From assembly GCA_043826565.1 (NCBI GenBank), contig JBDRPX010000021.1, positions 18,022-82,021 on the forward strand: a stretch of 64,000 bases of DNA. The letters are read 5' to 3'. The notes beneath the pieces were generated by a model. The model was not told the DNA's origin. It was given only the letters and a program-made list of their open reading frames with translations, and made no database searches. Both the position numbers and the translations under genes were made by a program. Positions 9,321 to 57,245 of the stretch are shown here, one piece after another. The stretch is from Candidatus Omnitrophota bacterium. Its GTDB lineage: Bacteria > Omnitrophota > Gorgyraeia > B26-G9. The first letter of the stretch is position 1, and each line of letters starts with the position of its first letter.

Positions 9321-9349
9321 TTGACAAATTAAACTTTATGATGTATTAT
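9321..9349 (+). promoter_or_regulatory. sigma-70-like promoter (TTGACA-17-TATTAT) giving a near-leaderless transcript of the NTase gene
   Basis: TTGACA lies at 9321-9326, followed by a 17-nt spacer and TATTAT at 9344-9349. The first ATG is at 9358, only about 8 nt downstream. No SD sequence is present. Confidence 0.5.
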
Positions 9350-9357
9350 TGTTGTGT

Positions 9358-10080
9358 ATGGAAGATGTTAATATTAAAATTATAGATGAATATTTAGACA
9401 AAACGTTGGAAGTTTTGTCAGGGGCGATAGATGATTTTTATCTTGCTGGAGGAACTGCTTTGTCAAAGTTTTATTTTGATCACAGAGGTTCTTTCGATTT
9501 AGATTTTTTCACTAAGAAGTTTTCTGAAAAGAGAGTTGAAGAAATCACAACATATATCGGGAAAAAATTAAATTTGCAAGTAAAACTAGCAGGTGTTACT
9601 GATCAAAAAGGAAAGATACAGGTTAGGACATATTATTTAATAATAGATACTGAAAATAAATTAAAACTTGATTTTGTGGAAGATAGATGTCCTGTGTTAA
9701 AGGGGTTAAATAGACGTGATGGAATTTATTTTCTTTCAAAAGAGGATTTATACCTAAGAAAAATATTTGCAATGTGTGGCAGCAGGAAAGATGTTGATGA
9801 TATTGGCCGAGATGCTTTTTTCGGGGGCAGACAAGAATCCAAAGATTATTTTGATGTTTATTGCCTTTCCAGCATTTTTATTCCCTTATCAGATTTTGTA
9901 TTACAATTTTGCGGAGATTCACAAATGGTTGAAAGGTTGATTCTTTGGCAAAGAACTTATGATAGATTTGCCATGAAAAGTGGATTAATAGATTTGATAA
10001 CAAAAACAGTTCCCGATGCGAGATTAATAGAAAAACATTTTGATAAAGAAATTGAAAAATTAATTAAGGCCGTGTCTTAG
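9358..10080 (+). CDS. nucleotidyltransferase of the AbiEii/AbiGii (DUF1814-like) toxin family
   Basis: The motif LAGGTALSKFYFDHRGSFDLDFF matches the GG-x-DxD pol-beta NTase motif typical of AbiEii. The gene lies in an AT-rich block. The start was moved from the track's TTG to ATG 9358. Confidence 0.6.
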   Translation: MEDVNIKIIDEYLDKTLEVLSGAIDDFYLAGGTALSKFYFDHRGSFDLDFFTKKFSEKRVEEITTYIGKKLNLQVKLAGVTDQKGKIQVRTYYLIIDTENKLKLDFVEDRCPVLKGLNRRDGIYFLSKEDLYLRKIFAMCGSRKDVDDIGRDAFFGGRQESKDYFDVYCLSSIFIPLSDFVLQFCGDSQMVERLILWQRTYDRFAMKSGLIDLITKTVPDARLIEKHFDKEIEKLIKAVS

Positions 10081-10100
10081 TAAGTCATAAGAGGAATAAA

Positions 10101-10667
10101 ATGAAAAGAATGTTTTGGGATAAAAATATATCTGAAAATGAAGTTAAACAAATTTTGAAAGATGATAAACAGGAAAGATTTGTTTATTTTGCGGCCATGT
10201 TGCTTTCCAGGGCCAATACTCCACAAATTGTGTTTGAAGAATTTTTAGAGAAAAAATGTTTTGTTAAATCATGGCAAAGGATTAAAAGAAAAATGCGGGA
10301 AAACAAGTGGAATGATAATCGTATTATTTTTTGGGATGCTATTTATAAAGTTTTAAAAGATAACCCAGAATATAAAAACATCAAATCACCCGGCAAGGGA
10401 AGGGAGATTGTTAGTAAAGAATTAGAAAAAATAGGGGGGCAGGTTAGAGCGATGAGAGCGGAGAAACGGATAACTCAACGCGCGCTGGCAATAGAGACAG
10501 GGGTATCGCAGCAAACAATATCGCTTATTGAAAGAGGGTATAGCAATATTTCTTTTTCAACTTTAGAAAAGATTGCAACGGCAGTTGGTTTAACAGTTAG
10601 CATAAGCGTATATCCTGCAGAAAAGATTTCTTTCCAGATGTTTGGTTCTGCCAATACGTCTTCATGA
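10101..10667 (+). CDS. protein with an unknown N-terminal domain and a C-terminal XRE-type HTH
   Basis: The C-terminal RITQRALAIETGVSQQTISLIERGYSNISFSTLEKIATAVGL is an XRE-family helix-turn-helix. It is encoded 20 nt downstream of the NTase gene in the same AT-rich block. Confidence 0.6.
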   Translation: MKRMFWDKNISENEVKQILKDDKQERFVYFAAMLLSRANTPQIVFEEFLEKKCFVKSWQRIKRKMRENKWNDNRIIFWDAIYKVLKDNPEYKNIKSPGKGREIVSKELEKIGGQVRAMRAEKRITQRALAIETGVSQQTISLIERGYSNISFSTLEKIATAVGLTVSISVYPAEKISFQMFGSANTSS

Positions 10668-13862: not shown

Positions 13863-13946
13863 CCCGCCATAAAGATTGGCGAGGTTCAATTCACCCAAAT
13901 CACTTATGTTCATGTCATTCCATAAGTGATGGGCTCATTGAAGGAG
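13863..13946 (+). promoter_or_regulatory. conserved structured leader element, family 1, copy A
   Basis: Hairpin 1 (CCCGCCAuaaagauUGGCG) is followed by GAGGUUCAAUUCACCC and then hairpin 2 (aUCACUUAUG-UUCAugucaUUC-CAUAAGUGAu). GGCUCAUUGAAGGAG follows and ends 8 nt before ATG 13954. The architecture recurs at 22333, 36481 and 50906. Confidence 0.6.
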
Positions 13947-13953
13947 AAAGATC

Positions 13954-14274
13954 ATGGCAAATGCTTTAATGCGTATCTGGGCGGAACGGGATATTGATGA
14001 GGTAAAGAAACACCTTTTATTAGCCGGGGAACTGAGTGCTAATTGTGATAATTGTCAGGAATTGGGAATTAATTTTATGAAGGAAGCGGTGTGCCCGTCC
14101 TGCGGCACTGCTTTTAAATATATTGCTTTACGCAAGAAAGACAGCTTTCGGGAAACCCAGAATATGATCGCCCGCCTAAAAGAAAACCGGCCCGATTTAA
14201 CGATCCTTGATTATGAGGATATTAAACGAGCCTGCGCTAAATCAAAAGCGAATGATATTTTCAGGATGAAATAA
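13954..14274 (+). CDS. hypothetical Zn-ribbon protein (CxxC...CxxC)
   Basis: Length is 106 aa, with CDNC and CPSC pairs. There is no known family match from memory. Confidence 0.45.
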   Translation: MANALMRIWAERDIDEVKKHLLLAGELSANCDNCQELGINFMKEAVCPSCGTAFKYIALRKKDSFRETQNMIARLKENRPDLTILDYEDIKRACAKSKANDIFRMK

Positions 14275-14323
14275 TCGGGTTCATTTACAGGATGTAAAAG
14301 CTTTGAACGGGATATTTTCGGTT
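14205..14323 (+). repeat. 119-bp direct repeat, copy 1 (last 23 codons of the upstream ORF plus a downstream hairpin motif)
   Basis: Identical to 14871-14989 by eye. Confidence 0.85.
14276..14311 (+). promoter_or_regulatory. conserved hairpin motif, family 2, copy i (CGGGUUCAUU-[UUACA-gga-UGUAA]-AAGCUUUGAACGGG)
   Basis: It starts 2 nt after the stop of the Zn-ribbon ORF and ends 44 nt upstream of the mgtC ATG. Related copies are at 14942 and 55007. Confidence 0.55.
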
Positions 14324-14355
14324 GAAAAATAGTGGAAAATTAGAAAGGGATAAAA

Positions 14356-14835
14356 ATGATAATAGATAATATACTTAATATTTCACCGTTTAGCTGGGTG
14401 GAGATAGGCAGCGCTTTAATTGCCGGGACAATCGTTGGGGTAGAAAGACAGATTTCCGGCAAACCTATTGGAATCAGGACAAGTATTCTGATTTGTTTAA
14501 GCACTTATATATTTACAACTTTCTGCAGTTTAACCACTCAGGCAACTCCGGATACCTCGCGGATAATCGGACAGATAATTACGGGAATAGGTTTTCTGGG
14601 AGCTGGAGTGATCCTTACGCGGGACGGAATTGTTTTAGGAGTGACTTCCGCGGCATGTATCTGGATATTAGCGGCCATAGGAATAACCATCGGATTAAAC
14701 TATCCTTTTACCGGCATCAAATTATCTTTATTAGCTGTTGTAATATTGACCGGTATTGATAATTTGGAAAAACGTATTCCGTTTTTAAGTAAAGGCGCAT
14801 ATCGTAAAAAAACTAAAGAAAGAAAAGAGCTATAA
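14356..14835 (+). CDS. mgtC: MgtC/SapB family membrane protein
   Basis: WVEIGSALIAGTIVGVERQISGKPIGIRT is the MgtC family signature. Length is 159 aa, with about 4 TM helices. Confidence 0.75.
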   Translation: MIIDNILNISPFSWVEIGSALIAGTIVGVERQISGKPIGIRTSILICLSTYIFTTFCSLTTQATPDTSRIIGQIITGIGFLGAGVILTRDGIVLGVTSAACIWILAAIGITIGLNYPFTGIKLSLLAVVILTGIDNLEKRIPFLSKGAYRKKTKERKEL

Positions 14836-14870
14836 TAAATCACTAAAGAAAACAGGCTCAATTTAATTAC

Positions 14871-14989
14871 CCTTGATTATGAGGATATTAAACGAGCCTG
14901 CGCTAAATCAAAAGCGAATGATATTTTCAGGATGAAATAATCGGGTTCATTTACAGGATGTAAAAGCTTTGAACGGGATATTTTCGGTT
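14871..14989 (+). repeat. 119-bp direct repeat, copy 2
   Basis: Identical to 14205-14323. It ends at the rpmB stop codon (on the - strand). Confidence 0.85.
14942..14977 (+). promoter_or_regulatory. conserved hairpin motif, family 2, copy ii
   Basis: Same sequence as copy i. It sits between the duplicated gene fragment and the 3' end of the convergent rpmB. Confidence 0.55.
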
Positions 14990-31695: not shown

Positions 31696-32199
31696 ATGGA
31701 ATTATCTGCTGTAATCGTTAATTTTTTCAAAAAACAGAAGTTTGTTGTTGTTTCCACGATTAATAAATCCGGGTATATTCACTGTTCCGCAAAAGGGATT
31801 GTCGGGATAGAAAAAGATGGAAAAGTATATTTGATAGACGCTTATCGGGCAAGTACTTTGGAAAACCTTAAAAATAATCCCAAAATTACGCTGACTTCAG
31901 TCGACGGGCAGGATTTTATCGGATATTCTTTAAAAGGAACAGCAAAGATTGTGGAACGGGAAAAGATAAAAGAGCATATTATTGCCGAATGGGAACAGCG
32001 GATTATCAAAAGGATATCCGACCGCCTGATTAAAAATGTTCAGGCGCAAAATCCCGGATTACATCATCCGGAAGCAATGATCCCGCCGCCGCAATATCTG
32101 ATTGAAGTTGATGTGGAAGCGGTTATTGATCTTGCCCCGCATAATTTAAAAAGCTCGATTATTCTGCAGACAGAAAACGGTAATGCAAATAGCGATTAA
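31696..32199 (+). CDS. pyridoxamine 5'-phosphate oxidase-like FMN-binding family protein (putative)
   Basis: The split-barrel-like pattern VVVSTINKSGYIHCSAKG...NLKNNPKITL is present. The assignment is weak. Confidence 0.4.
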   Translation: MELSAVIVNFFKKQKFVVVSTINKSGYIHCSAKGIVGIEKDGKVYLIDAYRASTLENLKNNPKITLTSVDGQDFIGYSLKGTAKIVEREKIKEHIIAEWEQRIIKRISDRLIKNVQAQNPGLHHPEAMIPPPQYLIEVDVEAVIDLAPHNLKSSIILQTENGNANSD

Positions 32200-36480: not shown

Positions 36481-36574
36481 GTCCGGGCACCAAAAAGATG
36501 TGCCACGGACATAAATTCGCCCAGATAACTTATGTTCACTTAGGTCCATAAGTTAGGGGCTCATTTAGGAGGGG
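36481..36574 (+). promoter_or_regulatory. conserved structured leader element, family 1, copy C
   Basis: Hairpin 1 (GUCCGGGCACC...GUGCCACGGAC) is followed by AUAAAUUCGCCCAG and then hairpin 2 (AUAACUUAUG-UUCAcuuagGUC-CAUAAGUUAg). GGGCUCAUUUAGGAGGGG follows and ends 7 nt before ATG 36582 (hcp). Confidence 0.55.
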
Positions 36575-50905: not shown

Positions 50906-50990
50906 CCCGCCAAAAAAATGGCGAGGTTAAATTCGCCTGCGCACTTATGTTCACGATGTTCCATAAGTGCTGGCTCATTGAAGAAAGGGG
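50906..50990 (+). promoter_or_regulatory. conserved structured leader element, family 1, copy D
   Basis: Hairpin 1 (CCCGCCAaaaaaaUGGCG) is followed by AGGUUAAAUUCGCCUGCG and then hairpin 2 (CACUUAUG-UUCAcgaugUUC-CAUAAGUG). CUGGCUCAUUGAAGAAAGGGG follows and ends 4 nt before ATG 50995. Confidence 0.6.
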
Positions 50991-54827: not shown

Positions 54828-54955
54828 ATAATTATTGGAAAAATTAATTTTTTTTAGCTAAAATAGGTTACCAAAACATGTATCAGTTTACTTGTATTAT
54901 TAAATGCACATTGAAGTGCTGTAATTTAAAGCAAGGTTTGCAAAAATATTAAGAC

Positions 54956-54988
54956 AAAGACGTTCTTGGACAGAGAACGTCTTTTTTC
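54956..54988 (+). terminator. terminator-like hairpin (AAGACGUUCUUGgacagAGAACGUCUU + UUUUUCG); sequence-related to 50781
   Basis: It lies about 130 nt after the VOC gene stop and about 150 nt upstream of glnN. Confidence 0.55.
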
Positions 54989-55006
54989 GTTTCAGGACGA
55001 AATGAC

Positions 55007-55042
55007 CGGGTTCATTGGCAGGACGCCAAGCTTTGAACGGGG
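55007..55042 (+). promoter_or_regulatory. conserved hairpin motif, family 2, copy iii (CGGGUUCAUU-[UUGGC-aggac-GCCAA]-GCUUUGAACGGGG) in the glnN leader
   Basis: It shares CGGGUUCAUU and AGCUUUGAACGGG with the mgtC-flank copies, while the inner stem covaries (UUUACA/UGUAAA versus UUGGC/GCCAA). Confidence 0.55.
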
Positions 55043-55139
55043 TGGTTTCACGATGAAATGATCCGCCAATAGTACAGGAGGTACGTTTTGTGGCGGATAG
55101 AAAGAAAATGACACGTAATTAAAAAAAGGAGATAGGATA

Positions 55140-57245
55140 ATGTTTAAAGCTAGTGAAATTTTTGGAGAATTGACGTTTAGTAAAAAAGCAATGCAAGAGA
55201 AGATGAGCAAGGTGGTTTATAATAAGCTCATTTCTACGATTGAAAGCGGAGTGCCGCTGGATCAATCTATTGCCGGAGATGTGGCACATGCGATGAAAGA
55301 ATGGGCTATGGAAAACGGAGCCACACATTTTACCCACTGGTTTCAGCCGCAGCGCGGGGGAACAGCGGAGAAACACGATGCGTTTCTTAGCTATGGTAAA
55401 AACGGTGAGATGATCGAACGGTTTTCCGCAAAACAGCTTATTCAGTCTGAACCGGATGCTTCTTCTTTTCCCTCCGGCGGAATTCGTTCCACTTTTGAAG
55501 CGCGCGGGTATACGGCATGGGATCCGACTTCCCCGGCCTTTTTATTGGAAGCCGGCGATACGAAGACATTGGTAATCCCTTCGGTATTTTTGTCATGGAC
55601 CGGGGAGGTTTTGGATATTAAAACTCCTTTACTGCGTTCAATGAAGTCATTAAACGAGGCGACATTATCTTTACAAAAAGTTTTAGGGAATAAAAAAGTA
55701 AACCGTATTAAAGTTTTTGGTGGCCCGGAACAGGAATACTTTTTGTTTTCAAAAGATTTATATCAAACGCGCCCGGATTTGATTGTTTGCGGAAGAACGC
55801 TTTTCGGCGCGCCTCCGGCAAAAGGGCAGCAGATGGAGGATCATTATTTTGGTTCAATTAATGCTACTGTTATCCAGTTTATGGAAACTTTTGACCGAGA
55901 GTTGTATCGCCGGGGGATTCCGGCAAAAACCCGCCACAACGAAGTCTCTCCGAACCAGTTTGAAATTGCTCCTTTATATGAGGAAGCAAATCTTGCCATA
56001 GATCATAACCTTCAGCTTATGGAGATTATGAAAAAAGTAGCGGATGAGTTTGATATGGTTGCGGTTCTTCATGAAAAACCTTTGGCCGGAGTAAATGGTT
56101 CCGGAAAGCATTTTAATTGGTCCATCGGAGATAATACCGGAGAAAATTATTTTGAACCGACAGGTTCTCCGCAGAAAAAGATAATGTTTTTGCTGTCCTT
56201 AGGCGCGATTTGTCTGGGAGTCAGTAAGTATGGCGGCTTACTGCGCGCGGCTGTTGCCGACGCGGGGAATGATCATCGTTTGGGGGCAAATGAAGCTCCG
56301 CCGGCAATTATCTCTGTGTATCTGGGGGAATATCTTGATGCCTTATTGGATGAAATTGAAGGCATCGGAAAAGTAACCGATAAGAAAATGTCCGAGATCT
56401 ATCTGGGGGTGCAGGATTTGCCGAAAGTTGCTAAAGATACATCAGACAGAAACAGAACTTCGCCGCTGGCGTTTACCGGAAATAAGTTTGAATTCCGCGC
56501 GGTTGGTTCAACTCAAAATTGCTCGGAAGCCGCGACAGTGCTGAATTTGCTCATGGCTTATGGTTATGATGAGATAGCCAAAAGGATAAGTGCTCATAAA
56601 GGCAGTGTTGATGTTAAAGCAAAAGCAATCGCGGTATTGGAAAAAGTATTAAAAGAGACTAAACATGTGCGTTTTGAAGGAAACAACTATGATGAGAAAT
56701 GGCACAAAGAAGCGGCAAAACGCGGTTTACCGAACACCAAGAATACTCCGGAAGCACTGGAGTTGTTCTTTAAAAAAGATGCGATCAAACTGTTTGAAAA
56801 ATTCGGTGTTTTAAGTGAAAAGGAATTACATTCAAAAATTGAGATCAGACTTGAAGCATATGTTAAGACAAAAGATATCGAGTTAAAAACTGCTTTAAAT
56901 ATTGCCCGGACGCTGGTATTGCCGGCAGTAGCTGATCAGATAACCTTGCTGGCTAATGCTAATACGGGAGTAAAAGCCGCCGGAGCAAAACCTAAAGGAT
57001 TAAGCGCGGACATCAGAACACTCAACGGCTTATATAATGATATTAAGTCCGGTATTTCCGAATTGGAAAAAGCCATGATTGTTTGTGAAAAGCAGTCGGA
57101 GATATTAAAGGCGGCAAAAGGTTATGCCAGCGTGGGAGCTGCGGCTTTAAATAATTTACGCGATGCGGTAGATGAAGCGGAAGAACTTATTGCCGACGAT
57201 TTATGGCCGATGGCAAAGTACCAGGAATTACTTTTAGTACTATAA
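55140..57245 (+). CDS. glnN: glutamine synthetase type III
   Basis: At 701 aa the length is characteristic of GSIII. A GS catalytic core is present mid-protein. Confidence 0.8.
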   Translation: MFKASEIFGELTFSKKAMQEKMSKVVYNKLISTIESGVPLDQSIAGDVAHAMKEWAMENGATHFTHWFQPQRGGTAEKHDAFLSYGKNGEMIERFSAKQLIQSEPDASSFPSGGIRSTFEARGYTAWDPTSPAFLLEAGDTKTLVIPSVFLSWTGEVLDIKTPLLRSMKSLNEATLSLQKVLGNKKVNRIKVFGGPEQEYFLFSKDLYQTRPDLIVCGRTLFGAPPAKGQQMEDHYFGSINATVIQFMETFDRELYRRGIPAKTRHNEVSPNQFEIAPLYEEANLAIDHNLQLMEIMKKVADEFDMVAVLHEKPLAGVNGSGKHFNWSIGDNTGENYFEPTGSPQKKIMFLLSLGAICLGVSKYGGLLRAAVADAGNDHRLGANEAPPAIISVYLGEYLDALLDEIEGIGKVTDKKMSEIYLGVQDLPKVAKDTSDRNRTSPLAFTGNKFEFRAVGSTQNCSEAATVLNLLMAYGYDEIAKRISAHKGSVDVKAKAIAVLEKVLKETKHVRFEGNNYDEKWHKEAAKRGLPNTKNTPEALELFFKKDAIKLFEKFGVLSEKELHSKIEIRLEAYVKTKDIELKTALNIARTLVLPAVADQITLLANANTGVKAAGAKPKGLSADIRTLNGLYNDIKSGISELEKAMIVCEKQSEILKAAKGYASVGAAALNNLRDAVDEAEELIADDLWPMAKYQELLLVL

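Follow-up and report, generated by a model that had tools for sequence, protein, structure and literature searches.

The type III glutamine synthetase gene glnN starts with an ATG at position 55140 of the window, the 64-kb stretch of Candidatus Omnitrophota DNA that was analysed as a whole. Its leader contains an intrinsic terminator hairpin with a 12-bp stem and a T-run and, placed between this terminator and the glnN ribosome-binding site, two hairpin units that we termed el1 and el2. An earlier note had recorded part of el1, at 55007-55042, as a hairpin motif about 98 nt upstream of the glnN start codon and behind a separate terminator-like hairpin; both the distance (98 nt) and the separate hairpin were confirmed. 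The same motif occurs at the 3' end of ORF106, a conserved 106-aa gene whose last codons are broken by the element, and once more on the other side of the gene mgtC (Table 1).

Table 1 Copies of the repeat unit and associated features in the window.
Feature	Position	Strand	Description
el1, glnN leader copy	54990-55049	+	Contains the earlier-noted 55007-55042; 5' box TTTCAGGACGAAATGACC; GAAAU/GUUUC; ACC/GGU; GG-GG internal loop; GUUCA/UGAAC; UUGGC/GCCAA with loop AGGAC; predicted fold -19.8 kcal/mol, z -2.25
el2, diverged tandem copy	55046-55104	+	Box TTTCACGATGAAATGATC; outer stem AUCCGCCA/UGGCGGAU; inner stem GUAC/GUAC with loop AGGAG; predicted fold -17.4 kcal/mol, z -3.49; structural scan and three-way alignment
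ORF106 3'-end copy, upstream of mgtC	14259-14319	+	Box TTTCAGGATGAAATAATC; inner stem UUUACA/UGUAAA with loop GGA
Second ORF106/mgtC copy	14925-14985	+	Identical to the first; in the downstream repeat arm; abuts the rpmB stop codon; not independent
Left copy of the 9-nt flanking duplication GATATTTTC	14254-14262	+	Native codons D-I-F of ORF106
Right copy of GATATTTTC with GGT-TGA	14311-14325	+	Ancestral ORF106 end D-I-F-G-stop, shifted 57 nt downstream
145-nt direct repeat, upstream arm	14179-14323	+	ORF106 3' end and element; arms 96% identical, spacing 666 nt
145-nt direct repeat, downstream arm	14845-14989	+	Degenerate ORF106 3' fragment and element; ends GGTTAAGC, overlapping the rpmB stop codon
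mgtC	14356-14835		Bracketed by the arms of the 145-nt direct repeat
Intrinsic terminator of the glnN leader	54956-54984	+	Outside the element; also kept by relatives

A repeat unit dispersed over two loci

The pattern CGGGTTCATT-N(8-20)-AGCTTTGAACGGG was found at exactly three places in the window (14276-14311, 14942-14977 and 55007-55041) and at none in 100 shuffles, in agreement with the three copies of the outer sequences described before. Since the copies at 14276 and 14942 share a single 145-nt direct repeat, they were counted as one observation. The earlier note would have regarded its reading as refuted if all three copies were parts of one recently duplicated unit; this holds for two of the three, which leaves two independent copies and, newly added, the diverged el2. 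The copy at 14925-14985 is also reached by an independent Logan contig of the same sequencing run, which breaks off 28 nt into it.

The motif at 55007-55042 is real, but the conserved unit is longer, at about 60 nt (54990-55049), and 49 of 61 columns are identical between this segment and 14259-14319. The unit, about 57-60 nt long, combines an 18-nt 5' box (TTTCAGGAYGAAATRAYC), which is a small palindrome in its own right (TTTCA-N3-TGAAA), with a two-tier hairpin behind it. It is palindromic throughout, without separate terminal repeats, and two box palindromes bracket each hairpin at a constant spacing of 56-57 bp. As had been proposed, the inner stem differs between the loci yet stays paired (UUUACA/UGUAAA vs UUGGC/GCCAA), and GUUCA/UGAAC closes an outer helix in the predicted folds. 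Additional helices are present in el1 and the ORF106/mgtC copy, namely GAAAU/RUUUC and AUC/GAU vs ACC/GGU.

The second unit of the glnN leader, el2, directly follows el1 head-to-tail on the same strand, with a TTTC junction common to both. Its box is identical at 15 of 18 positions and can be found within three mismatches, a cut-off at which two chance matches occur in 1.4 Mb, and its nested hairpin is arranged as in the other copies, with a CAGGAGG loop. A covariance model built from the other two copies alone did not recover el2, and box identity, register and architecture are the grounds for counting it as a member. The el2 box carries CGA where the others have GGA. In el2, C-G and G-C pairs stand in place of the GG/GG internal loop, which is thus not conserved as an unpaired feature.

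When el1, el2 and the ORF106/mgtC copy are aligned three ways without gaps, 30 of 61 columns are invariant. The terminal loops read CAGGAUG, CAGGACG and CAGGAGG, with C, A, G, G, A and G constant while the stems change. Compensatory double changes are present in 5 of the 17 scored pairs, a result reached by 2 of 500 shuffles, and sliding the structures by 1-3 columns gave a much lower covariation score. Some unpaired nucleotides are also the same in el1 and the mgtC copy. Folding of the latter is weak (-8.7 kcal/mol, z -0.57), and neither of these two copies forms the box hairpin in its minimum-energy fold. The two strands fold with similar stability and almost every pair is Watson-Crick, with one G-U in el1, as expected of a DNA-level palindrome.

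No reading frame is conserved through the unit, which has no coding capacity. A leader peptide was rejected because the 19-codon ORF running through el1 is not kept in the mgtC copy. We also rejected a sigma-54 promoter (TGGCA...GC in el1), as its spacing deviates by one position and the mgtC copy lacks the motif.

Occupied and putative empty sites

At the first locus, the three closest orthologs of ORF106 end in DIFG-stop and the window gene ends in DIFRMK-stop. Its new stop codon (14272-14274) comes from the box of the element. The order in the window is GATATTTTC|AGGATGAAATAA...GAACGG|GATATTTTC-GGT-TGA. After a perfect 9-nt duplication, the ancestral GGT-TGA reappears 19 codons (57 nt) downstream, and the original end of ORF106 is regenerated. 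The native target, TTTTC-GGT-TGAAAA, is box-like. In two relatives with long contigs, the convergent gene rpmB lies directly after ORF106 and mgtC is absent. The empty ORF106-rpmB site can be reconstructed, tentatively, as ...AATGATATTTTCGGTTAAGC....

At the second locus, the motif was found in none of the 80 related glnN loci retrieved, whose GlnN proteins are 50-80% identical to that of the window; the nearest GlnN among 5.8 billion proteins is 80% identical. The glnN leaders of six relatives (L001, L004, L005, L012, L063 and L064) retain a promoter-like box (GTTACCA-N14-15-TTTACTT), a small GCAC-hexaloop-GUGC hairpin and an intrinsic terminator, and five of these six leaders were aligned with the window. 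From GTTACCA to the ATG, five relatives have 145-168 nt and L063 has 220 nt, as against 273 nt in the window, and the extra length of about 110 nt equals el1 plus el2. The corresponding empty site would read ...TTTTTTCGTTTC-AAAATGACACG....

The part of the glnN leader that relatives conserve is the upstream promoter-like box, small hairpin and terminator, not the repeat element. The hairpin had been taken for a functional structure as opposed to a chance terminator. It is indeed a repeated hairpin beyond chance, with compensatory pairing, and with no U-tract it is no plain intrinsic terminator. A conserved regulatory RNA of glnN found no support, the motif being absent from the related loci. 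Since the closest relatives are only 80% (GlnN) and 78% (ORF106) identical, insertion is inferred across a large evolutionary distance.

Searches for further copies and for a mobilising enzyme

Rfam gave no family at the gathering threshold over the whole window and nothing relevant at E<=10 over 54850-55200 and 14150-14400, where the matches were at chance level (DUF3800-I, CRISPR-DR61, DUF2815, tobamovirus IRES, hairpin ribozyme and CsrB). Searches of the window by blastn-short, by a structural descriptor and by two covariance models run unfiltered returned the known copies only. The same searches found no copy in 27 Omnitrophota loci and about 10 kb more flanking sequence of the same organism. 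A 19-bit match at 31752-31814, inside an ORF, was judged to be chance.

The motif is likewise missing from loci around ORF106 or mgtC homologs and from 1.34 Mb of other retrieved sequence. A metagenome scan with the hairpin core, CGGGTTCA-N(8-30)-AGCTTTGAACGGG, gave no credible copy; in hindsight, we judged the 5' box to be the better pattern for such a scan. Four metagenome matches were rejected as G+C-rich and without box and inner hairpin, the one in L083 lying within a 1193-aa ORF. Viral scans with the core and box patterns yielded 78 and 30 matches, respectively, none of them followed by the hairpin, and BLAST against plasmid and phage collections gave no match.

The searches for copies and enzymes covered about 74 kb of this genome. 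No transposase, recombinase, integrase or Y1-transposase domain was found among the roughly 50 ORFs of the window, no parent insertion sequence in the window or the collections searched, and no RAYT in the 74 kb. Six-frame translations of the window and all loci contained no CsrA signature. In the closest relative (L164), a RAYT-like gene with GTAG-headed palindromes adjoins the ORF106 ortholog, which indicates that REP-type systems exist in the clade; these palindromes are unrelated to the present element.

Origin and possible roles of the element

We consider it probable that this family (family-2) is a lineage-specific, non-coding, insertion-derived dispersed palindromic repeat of the REP or MITE kind, and not a conserved glutamine-sensing switch. 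At least three insertions would have taken place within 41 kb, one in the last codons of ORF106 and two in tandem in the glnN 5' leader, where they would have fallen downstream of the ancestral terminator. The ORF106 copy would later have been duplicated along with the acquired mgtC. An enzyme encoded elsewhere may mobilise the unit in trans, presumably recognising the hairpin, as in REP or MITE-type elements. Such an enzyme could work by cut- or copy-and-paste transposition that duplicates the target, or by recombining site-specifically at TTTC...GAAA palindromes similar to the box of the element. Effects on glnN or mgtC expression, through hairpins in the mRNA or protein-binding loops, would be secondary and not the reason why the sequence exists.

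Insertion is supported by the unrelated contexts of the copies, a gene 3' end facing a convergent gene vs a 5' leader, as well as by the TTTC junction of the tandem pair and the box-like native target in ORF106. Several points speak against it. The independent copies number only three, of which el2 is weakly supported. The ORF106 copy has a flanking duplication of 9 nt, whereas el1 has only 5 nt (GTTTC) and el2 none, and because the right-hand 'duplicate' also pairs in a covarying helix (AUC/GAU vs ACC/GGU), the boundaries of the element are ambiguous. Moreover, that the CAGGANG loop is invariant although the stems drift suggests selection for contact with RNA or a protein, which would not be expected of a purely selfish element.

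Among known repeats, the REP/REPIN elements mobilised by RAYT are likewise short imperfect palindromes that are non-coding, dispersed, mostly extragenic and lineage-specific, with hairpins kept by compensatory change and frequent positions beside stop codons or between convergent genes (PMC3116915, PMC3337134). Our short non-coding palindrome is present in three independent copies at two loci within 64 kb. However, it lacks the GT[AG]G head and has TTTCAGGAYGAAAT as its conserved 5' part, and since the adjacent el1 and el2 are direct and not inverted, they do not form a REPIN doublet. Mobilisation of the IS200/IS605 type leaves no flanking duplication, whereas one copy here has 9 nt.

Small repeats of this general sort include Correia/NEMIS, RUP, BOX and ERIC. 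Bacterial MITEs resemble the element in being small, non-autonomous and self-complementary, absent at orthologous loci and flanked by a direct duplication, seen here at one site; by analogy, it may also be co-transcribed into mRNAs and form hairpins there. The uninterrupted target can be recognised at both loci, in the regenerated DIFG-stop and in the excess leader length of glnN. Unlike most MITEs, the unit is shorter, at about 57 nt, lacks clear terminal inverted repeats apart from the central palindrome, and has a duplication length that is inconsistent between copies.

It is unlikely that the unit is instead a cis-acting RNA module for a CsrA/RsmA-type or similar protein, which in the 5' leaders of glnN and mgtC would attract or titrate a regulator of translation; such a module would be compatible with spread by insertion. 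The loop C, A, G, G, A and G are invariant while the stems vary, and GGA is exposed in the loops AGGAU, AGGAC and AGGAG. As in CsrA/RsmA sites and CsrB/RsmZ decoys, each unit in a 5' leader could display GGA in two hairpin loops separated by about 26 nt, which could be a suitable distance for a dimer. Two of the three boxes can fold as UUUCA-GGA-UGAAA, but the el2 box has CGA in place of GGA, and at minimum energy neither el1 nor the mgtC copy forms the box hairpin.

CsrB repeats have the form CAGGA(U/C/A)G, to which we take the heptamer of the element, CAGGA(U/C/G)G, to be identical, and the RsmE site in hcnA is UUCACGGAUGAA. All intergenic CAGGANG sequences of the window, Shine-Dalgarno sites apart, fall in these elements, and both loci are transcribed towards the downstream gene, whose ribosome-binding site also has GGA. 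The inner hairpin of the mgtC copy (UACAGGAUGU) is one base short of the SELEX consensus RUACARGGAUGU, in which ACA and GGA are invariant and GGA lies in a hairpin loop (PMC4347634, PMC13443453). CsrA reportedly has a wide distribution and is frequent in Planctomycetota (PMC13443453).

However, no csrA gene was seen in the sequence examined (window and all loci), and GGA-rich loops also look like plain Shine-Dalgarno sequence. The CsrB model of Rfam scored 6.6 bits vs a gathering score of 71 (E = 7.9), which places the element outside these families, and each locus has only two or three hairpins. Unlike CsrB/Rsm RNAs, the element is not conserved in orthologous leaders, those of glnN having no equivalent, and the ORF106 copy, before mgtC arrived, faced a convergent gene and led nothing. 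Insertion and protein binding could also be combined in a mobile 'regulatory cartridge', a pair of CAGGANG-loop hairpins (CsrA-type or anti-Shine-Dalgarno-binding) that inserts at TTTC...GAAA palindromes and wires glnN and the newly acquired mgtC into a post-transcriptional regulon, but we regard this as improbable, like the related idea of an exceptionally small element that inserts through its own 5-3-5 palindromic box by site-specific recombination.

A role as a transcription terminator or 3'-end mRNA stabiliser of the ORF106 transcript, which would also punctuate the glnN leader, appears quite improbable. The hairpin begins at the ORF106 stop codon and, before mgtC, stood between the convergent ORF106 and rpmB, and REP-type hairpins stabilise upstream mRNA. 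Nevertheless, the 3' tails after the element hairpins (AUAUUUUCGG and GGUUUCACG) contain no U-tract, the terminator scan called the neighbouring hairpin at 54956-54984 but not the element, and the mgtC copy folds weakly. The glnN copies already lie past a canonical terminator, and ending transcription there, in the leader of a gene from an essential pathway, would be counter-productive.

We give only a slight chance to the boxes being DNA operators, in which a dimeric transcription factor regulating glnN and mgtC would bind to the TTTCA-N3-TGAAA palindromes, spaced by about 56 bp. The constant box spacing and the equivalence of the strands would fit such operators, but at mgtC the right-hand 'box' belongs to the native coding sequence of ORF106 and is present in orthologs, and the compensatory changes in the hairpin between the boxes would be left unexplained. 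Moreover, the boxes lie far downstream of the promoter-like region of glnN kept in relatives, whose loci lack them.

A metabolite-sensing riboswitch for glnN and mgtC, responding to glutamine or another nitrogen- or Mg-related ligand, is very improbable, although the hairpin is sited in the glnN 5' leader and upstream of mgtC, is kept by compensatory changes and has unpaired nucleotides common to el1 and the mgtC copy. The glutamine riboswitch, with which the earlier note had thought a comparison warranted, found no support. With the glnA RNA and Downstream-peptide families the element has in common only a position upstream of a glutamine synthetase gene; it shows no similarity to their covariance models, and neither these nor other Rfam families gave a relevant match at threshold or even at E<=10. 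The element is a simple extended hairpin without junction or pseudoknot and is not conserved in type III glutamine synthetase leaders, and the GG/GG loop is fully paired in el2. It sits downstream of the leader terminator, the ribosome-binding site follows at least about 40 nt later, and no expression platform is evident. Both sites look like insertions, one of them into coding sequence.

An integron attC-like site, with mgtC as a cassette bounded by two copies, is hardly credible. An mgtC homolog (L170, 78% identical) does lie in an array of same-strand small ORFs with canonical RYYYAAC...GTTRRRY sites between them; here mgtC is bracketed by two hairpin copies, the arms end in CGG|TTGAAAA and CGG|TTAAGC, the latter giving a perfect GTTRRRY, and conserved lower stems with a variable terminal stem are loosely attC-like. 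Yet this GTTAAGC has no paired inverse core RYYYAAC, the site fails the R''/R' test and, whichever strand is read, the GTT...AAC order in the hairpin is the opposite of that in attC. About 80 nt of ORF106 coding sequence is carried in the duplicated arms and would not be copied by the site-specific insertion of a cassette, the glnN copies flank no cassette, and the window lacks an integrase.

Taken as an inserted palindromic repeat, the element represents a small repeat family not described before in Candidatus Omnitrophota, a phylum in which hardly any mobile or regulatory elements have been characterised, and its insertion site in ORF106 is unusually clean, with the last codons of a conserved gene rewritten. 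It also serves as a caution, since a covarying hairpin before a metabolic gene resembled a riboswitch and ortholog comparison shows a recent lineage-specific insert. If the GGA loops bind a CsrA-like protein, the family would be an example of regulatory sites spread by insertion, and a mobile cartridge of such hairpins would mean that mobile DNA spreads RNA-binding-protein sites in an uncultivated phylum. For the regulation of glnN in this clade, the upstream leader common to the relatives, with its hexaloop hairpin and terminator, is more promising than the element.

Copies and structure of the Family-2 hairpin

The pattern CGGGTTCATT-N(8-20)-AGCTTTGAACGGG, which the earlier note had placed at three sites as the core of the Family-2 hairpin, was recovered exactly at 14276-14311, 14942-14977 and 55007-55041 of the window and in none of 100 shuffled sequences. 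The inner stems indeed differ while staying paired (UUUACA/UGUAAA in the mgtC copies vs UUGGC/GCCAA in el1, the copy in the leader of the type III glutamine synthetase gene glnN), the proposed GUUCA/UGAAC outer helix formed in the predicted folds, and 98 nt separate the end of the motif from the glnN ATG at 55140, the distance estimated before. The terminator-like hairpin said to precede this copy was located at 54956-54984, with a canonical form, 12 pairs and a T-run. However, the three copies are not independent of each other, since both mgtC copies lie within one 145-nt direct repeat and thus count as a single observation.

Alignment of el1 with the mgtC copy gave 49 identical columns out of 61, with conservation over about 60 nt. 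The unit opens with an 18-nt 5' box, TTTCAGGAYGAAATRAYC, and two more helices lie beneath the known outer helix: GAAAU/RUUUC, and AUC/GAU in the mgtC copy vs ACC/GGU in el1. A diverged tandem copy, el2, matches the box at 15 of 18 positions and has the same nested hairpin as the others (AUCCGCCA/UGGCGGAU enclosing GUAC-AGGAG-GUAC). A covariance model of just el1 and the mgtC copy did not recover el2, which is therefore assigned to the family by its box, its exact register and its architecture. In the gapless alignment of all three, 30 of 61 columns were invariant and compensatory double changes occurred in 5 of 17 pairs, a level reached in 2 of 500 shuffles, while structures slid by 1-3 columns gave a far lower covariation score than the true register. 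What is a GG/GG internal loop in el1 and in the mgtC copy is paired as C-G and G-C in el2 and is therefore not a conserved unpaired feature. In predicted folds, neither strand did much better than the other, almost every pair was Watson-Crick, and the mgtC copy folded weakly (-8.7 kcal/mol, z -0.57).

Coordinates of the Family-2 copies and of other elements; positions are those of the window unless a fetched locus (L number) is named
Feature	Position	Remark
mgtC copy of Family-2	14259-14319	compared with el1
el1	54990-55049	copy in the glnN leader
el2	55046-55104	diverged copy, head-to-tail after el1, TTTC junction common to both
ORF106	13954-14274	conserved 106-aa gene
145-nt direct repeat	14179-14323 and 14845-14989	arms 96% identical, 666 nt apart; brackets mgtC 14356-14835
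ORF106-rpmB interval	14179-14989; L163 3001-3633; L166 3001-3825	mgtC not between the two genes in the relatives
Shared glnN leader	54867-54990; L001 2844-2960; L004 2847-2950; L005 2834-2950; L012 2833-2950; L064 451-560
Second repeat family, about 75 nt	13888-13939, 36514-36565, 50929-50980
Toxin gene pair	9349-10667	AbiEii-family nucleotidyltransferase toxin gene, then HTH (Cro/C1-type) gene

The hairpin at ORF106 and in the glnN leader

ORF106, whose 3' end carries the mgtC copy, is identical to a hypothetical protein from a Candidatus Omnitrophota MAG (locus tag ABII88_05725). Its three closest orthologs end in ...DIFG-stop, as in GATATTTTCGGATAA and GATATTTTTGGGTGA, and two relatives with long contigs have the convergent rpmB gene immediately after ORF106, with no mgtC between. 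In the window, this end reads GATATTTTC|AGGATGAAATAATCGGG...TTTGAACGG|GATATTTTC-GGT-TGA: ORF106 now ends in DIFRMK-stop with a stop codon that comes from the Family-2 box, and the ancestral D-I-F-G-stop is displaced 57 nt (19 codons) downstream, after a perfect 9-nt duplication of GATATTTTC. Judged from the sequence, these features are what an insertion into the 3' end of a coding region leaves behind, and they are the clearest evidence of all. The corresponding sequence in the other arm of the mgtC repeat ends in GGT-TAA and overlaps the rpmB stop, which is what the arrangement before mgtC predicts. Until mgtC arrived, the ORF106 copy faced a convergent gene and formed the 5' leader of nothing.

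The bracketing of mgtC by repeats and its absence in relatives point to a recent acquisition by recombination. In the downstream arm, the first ~35 nt are only ~75% identical to ORF106 and the other ~110 nt are identical, which suggests that the arm arose by recombination or gene conversion and not by plain tandem copying. In the same sequencing run (SRR26275510), an independent Logan contig breaks off 28 nt inside the rpmB-side element (L201 3229-3256), as a k-mer graph does where there is a true branch; the boundary of the repeat is thus present in the reads, consistent with one genome or two strains.

At the other locus, glnN is preceded by genes for AmtB, P-II, a methyltransferase and a glyoxalase and followed by the one for the large subunit of glutamate synthase, and the closest GlnN among 5.8 billion proteins is 80% identical. 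The Family-2 motif was present in none of 80 glnN loci from genomes with GlnN 50-80% identical, so that the motif is not conserved with glnN. The window and six Omnitrophota relatives (L001, L004, L005, L012, L063 and L064) share a different leader, made up of GTTACCA-N14-15-TTTACTT, which is promoter-like, a GCAC-hexaloop-GUGC hairpin and a U-tract terminator of 12-14 bp; the terminator carries compensatory changes in the alignment of the window with five of the six. Five relatives have a GTTACCA-to-ATG distance of 145-168 nt, L063 one of 220 nt and the window one of 273 nt; the ~110-nt excess of the window consists of el1 and el2, placed between the ancestral terminator and the ribosome-binding site. 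Since the relatives' leaders lack this segment, the conserved regulatory part is the upstream one and Family-2 is a lineage-specific addition. For GS type III, the shared leader would probably act as a transcription attenuator. Its hexaloop hairpin has the form GCAC-[A/G]NNG[A/U]A-GUGC and is followed by a second box, GGCAnAAUGAA, before the terminator; the hexaloop, with A at position 1 and G at position 4, presumably recalls ANTAR targets.

Alternative readings of the hairpin

As the main rival explanation, or as a secondary function, the GGA loops could bind a protein of the CsrA/RsmA type at the RNA level. GGA in a hairpin loop is a hallmark of such sites; the CsrB repeat is CAGGA(U/C/A)G and the RsmE site in hcnA is UUCACGGAUGAA. 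The terminal loops of the three hairpins (CAGGAUG, CAGGACG and CAGGAGG) are invariant while the stems beneath them change, which is not explained by a purely selfish repeat. Two of the three boxes contain UUUCA-GGA-UGAAA, and all intergenic CAGGANG of the window, Shine-Dalgarno sites aside, fall within Family-2 elements. We also set the inner hairpin of the mgtC copy, UACAGGAUGU, beside the SELEX consensus RUACARGGAUGU, in which ACA and GGA are invariant (PMC4347634; PMC13443453). On the other hand, no csrA was found in the available DNA, the Rfam CsrB model gave a negligible score (6.6 bits; threshold 71), and the loops also resemble common Shine-Dalgarno sequence.

An integron attC site was considered because an mgtC homolog (78% identical) in another Omnitrophota MAG (L170 1-5000) lies in an integron-like cassette array, and the arms in the window have GTT-core-like ends (CGG|TTGAAAA and CGG|TTAAGC). 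The array is textbook-looking, with small same-strand ORFs and 80-180-nt sites between them that start with RYYYAAC and end with GTTRRRY. We rejected this reading, as no paired inverse core is present in the Family-2 hairpin and ~80 nt of coding sequence from ORF106 recur in the arms, which a cassette insertion would not produce. A DNA operator pair is unlikely as well, because native coding sequence makes up the right-hand box at mgtC and the covariation of the hairpin would be left unexplained. The view that the element is no plain terminator held: it has no U-tract, the terminator scan did not call it, and the fold of the mgtC copy is weak. The suggested comparison with the glutamine riboswitch gave nothing, as no Rfam family reached threshold anywhere in the window and permissive scans of both loci returned chance-level matches only, none to glnA RNA or Downstream-peptide; a riboswitch is not supported, on these grounds together with the lack of conservation, the simple junctionless hairpin, the non-conserved internal loop and the lack of an evident expression platform.

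Origin of the repeat and neighbouring elements

The best-supported explanation is that Family-2 is a small non-autonomous dispersed palindromic repeat. It occurs at two loci, is absent from the orthologous loci of relatives and regenerates its target; its hairpin is kept by compensatory changes, it has no coding capacity, and its two strands fold equivalently. Such a repeat would be mobilised in trans by an enzyme encoded elsewhere. One route would be transposition with target duplication: the flanking duplication spans 9 nt at ORF106 but is limited to GTTTC at el1 and missing at el2, an unevenness that could reflect decay. Another would be site-specific recombination at palindromes of the form TTTC...GAAA. 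In its native form, the end of ORF106 (TTTTC-GGT-TGAAAA) resembles the box TTTCA-GGA-TGAAA, and boxes bracket each hairpin (box-hairpin-box-hairpin at glnN, box-hairpin-native pseudo-box at ORF106). Since the right-hand 'duplicate' pairs with the left arm in a covarying helix, the element boundaries cannot be fixed from three copies.

No further copies were found in the window by blastn-short, a structural descriptor and two covariance models with filters off. The ~10 kb of extra flanking DNA of the same sample and 27 Omnitrophota loci likewise yielded none. A covariance-model match at 31752-31814 (19 bits, rough E = 0.04; TTTCCACGATTAATAAATCCGGG...CGGGATAGAAAA) shares a box-like start and the end GGGATAGAAA with el2, but this weak match lies within a PNPOx-family ORF and is probably due to chance. 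The 18-nt box was absent from 1.34 Mb of other fetched DNA save two three-mismatch chance matches, and the hairpin descriptor matched 620 kb of related loci at the background rate only. Four G+C-rich matches in one metagenome pattern scan were judged chance, and viral, plasmid and phage searches yielded no credible copy.

No transposase, integrase or recombinase domain was found among the ~50 ORFs of the window. In the closest relative, an ORF resembling a REP-associated tyrosine transposase (RAYT; NCBIfam NF047646, E = 4e-10, below the curated cut-off; L164 673-1134) lies directly downstream of the ORF106 ortholog, with an in-frame stop and two inverted GTAG-headed, G+C-rich palindromes (GTAGGGGCGCCGCTTGCCTGCGCCCG). 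REP-type systems thus exist in the clade, but these palindromes are unrelated to Family-2.

The toxin gene and HTH gene of the window form a probable type IV toxin-antitoxin or abortive-infection pair. The second repeat family has the form AAATTCGCC..ACTTATG-TTCAnnnnnnTTC-CATAAGT..GGCTCATTGAAG plus a Shine-Dalgarno site and ends 10-20 nt before the starts of ORF106, a hybrid-cluster protein (prismane) gene and an unannotated ORF upstream of amtB. Its stems covary between copies, it has no Rfam match, and it seems a better candidate than Family-2 for a true cis-regulatory element (RNA or operator).

We regard Family-2 as a new small, lineage-specific, insertion-derived hairpin repeat in an Omnitrophota genome, with GGA loops that were possibly exapted. 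Nearby, the conserved glnN leader and the second repeat family before three start codons hold more regulatory promise.
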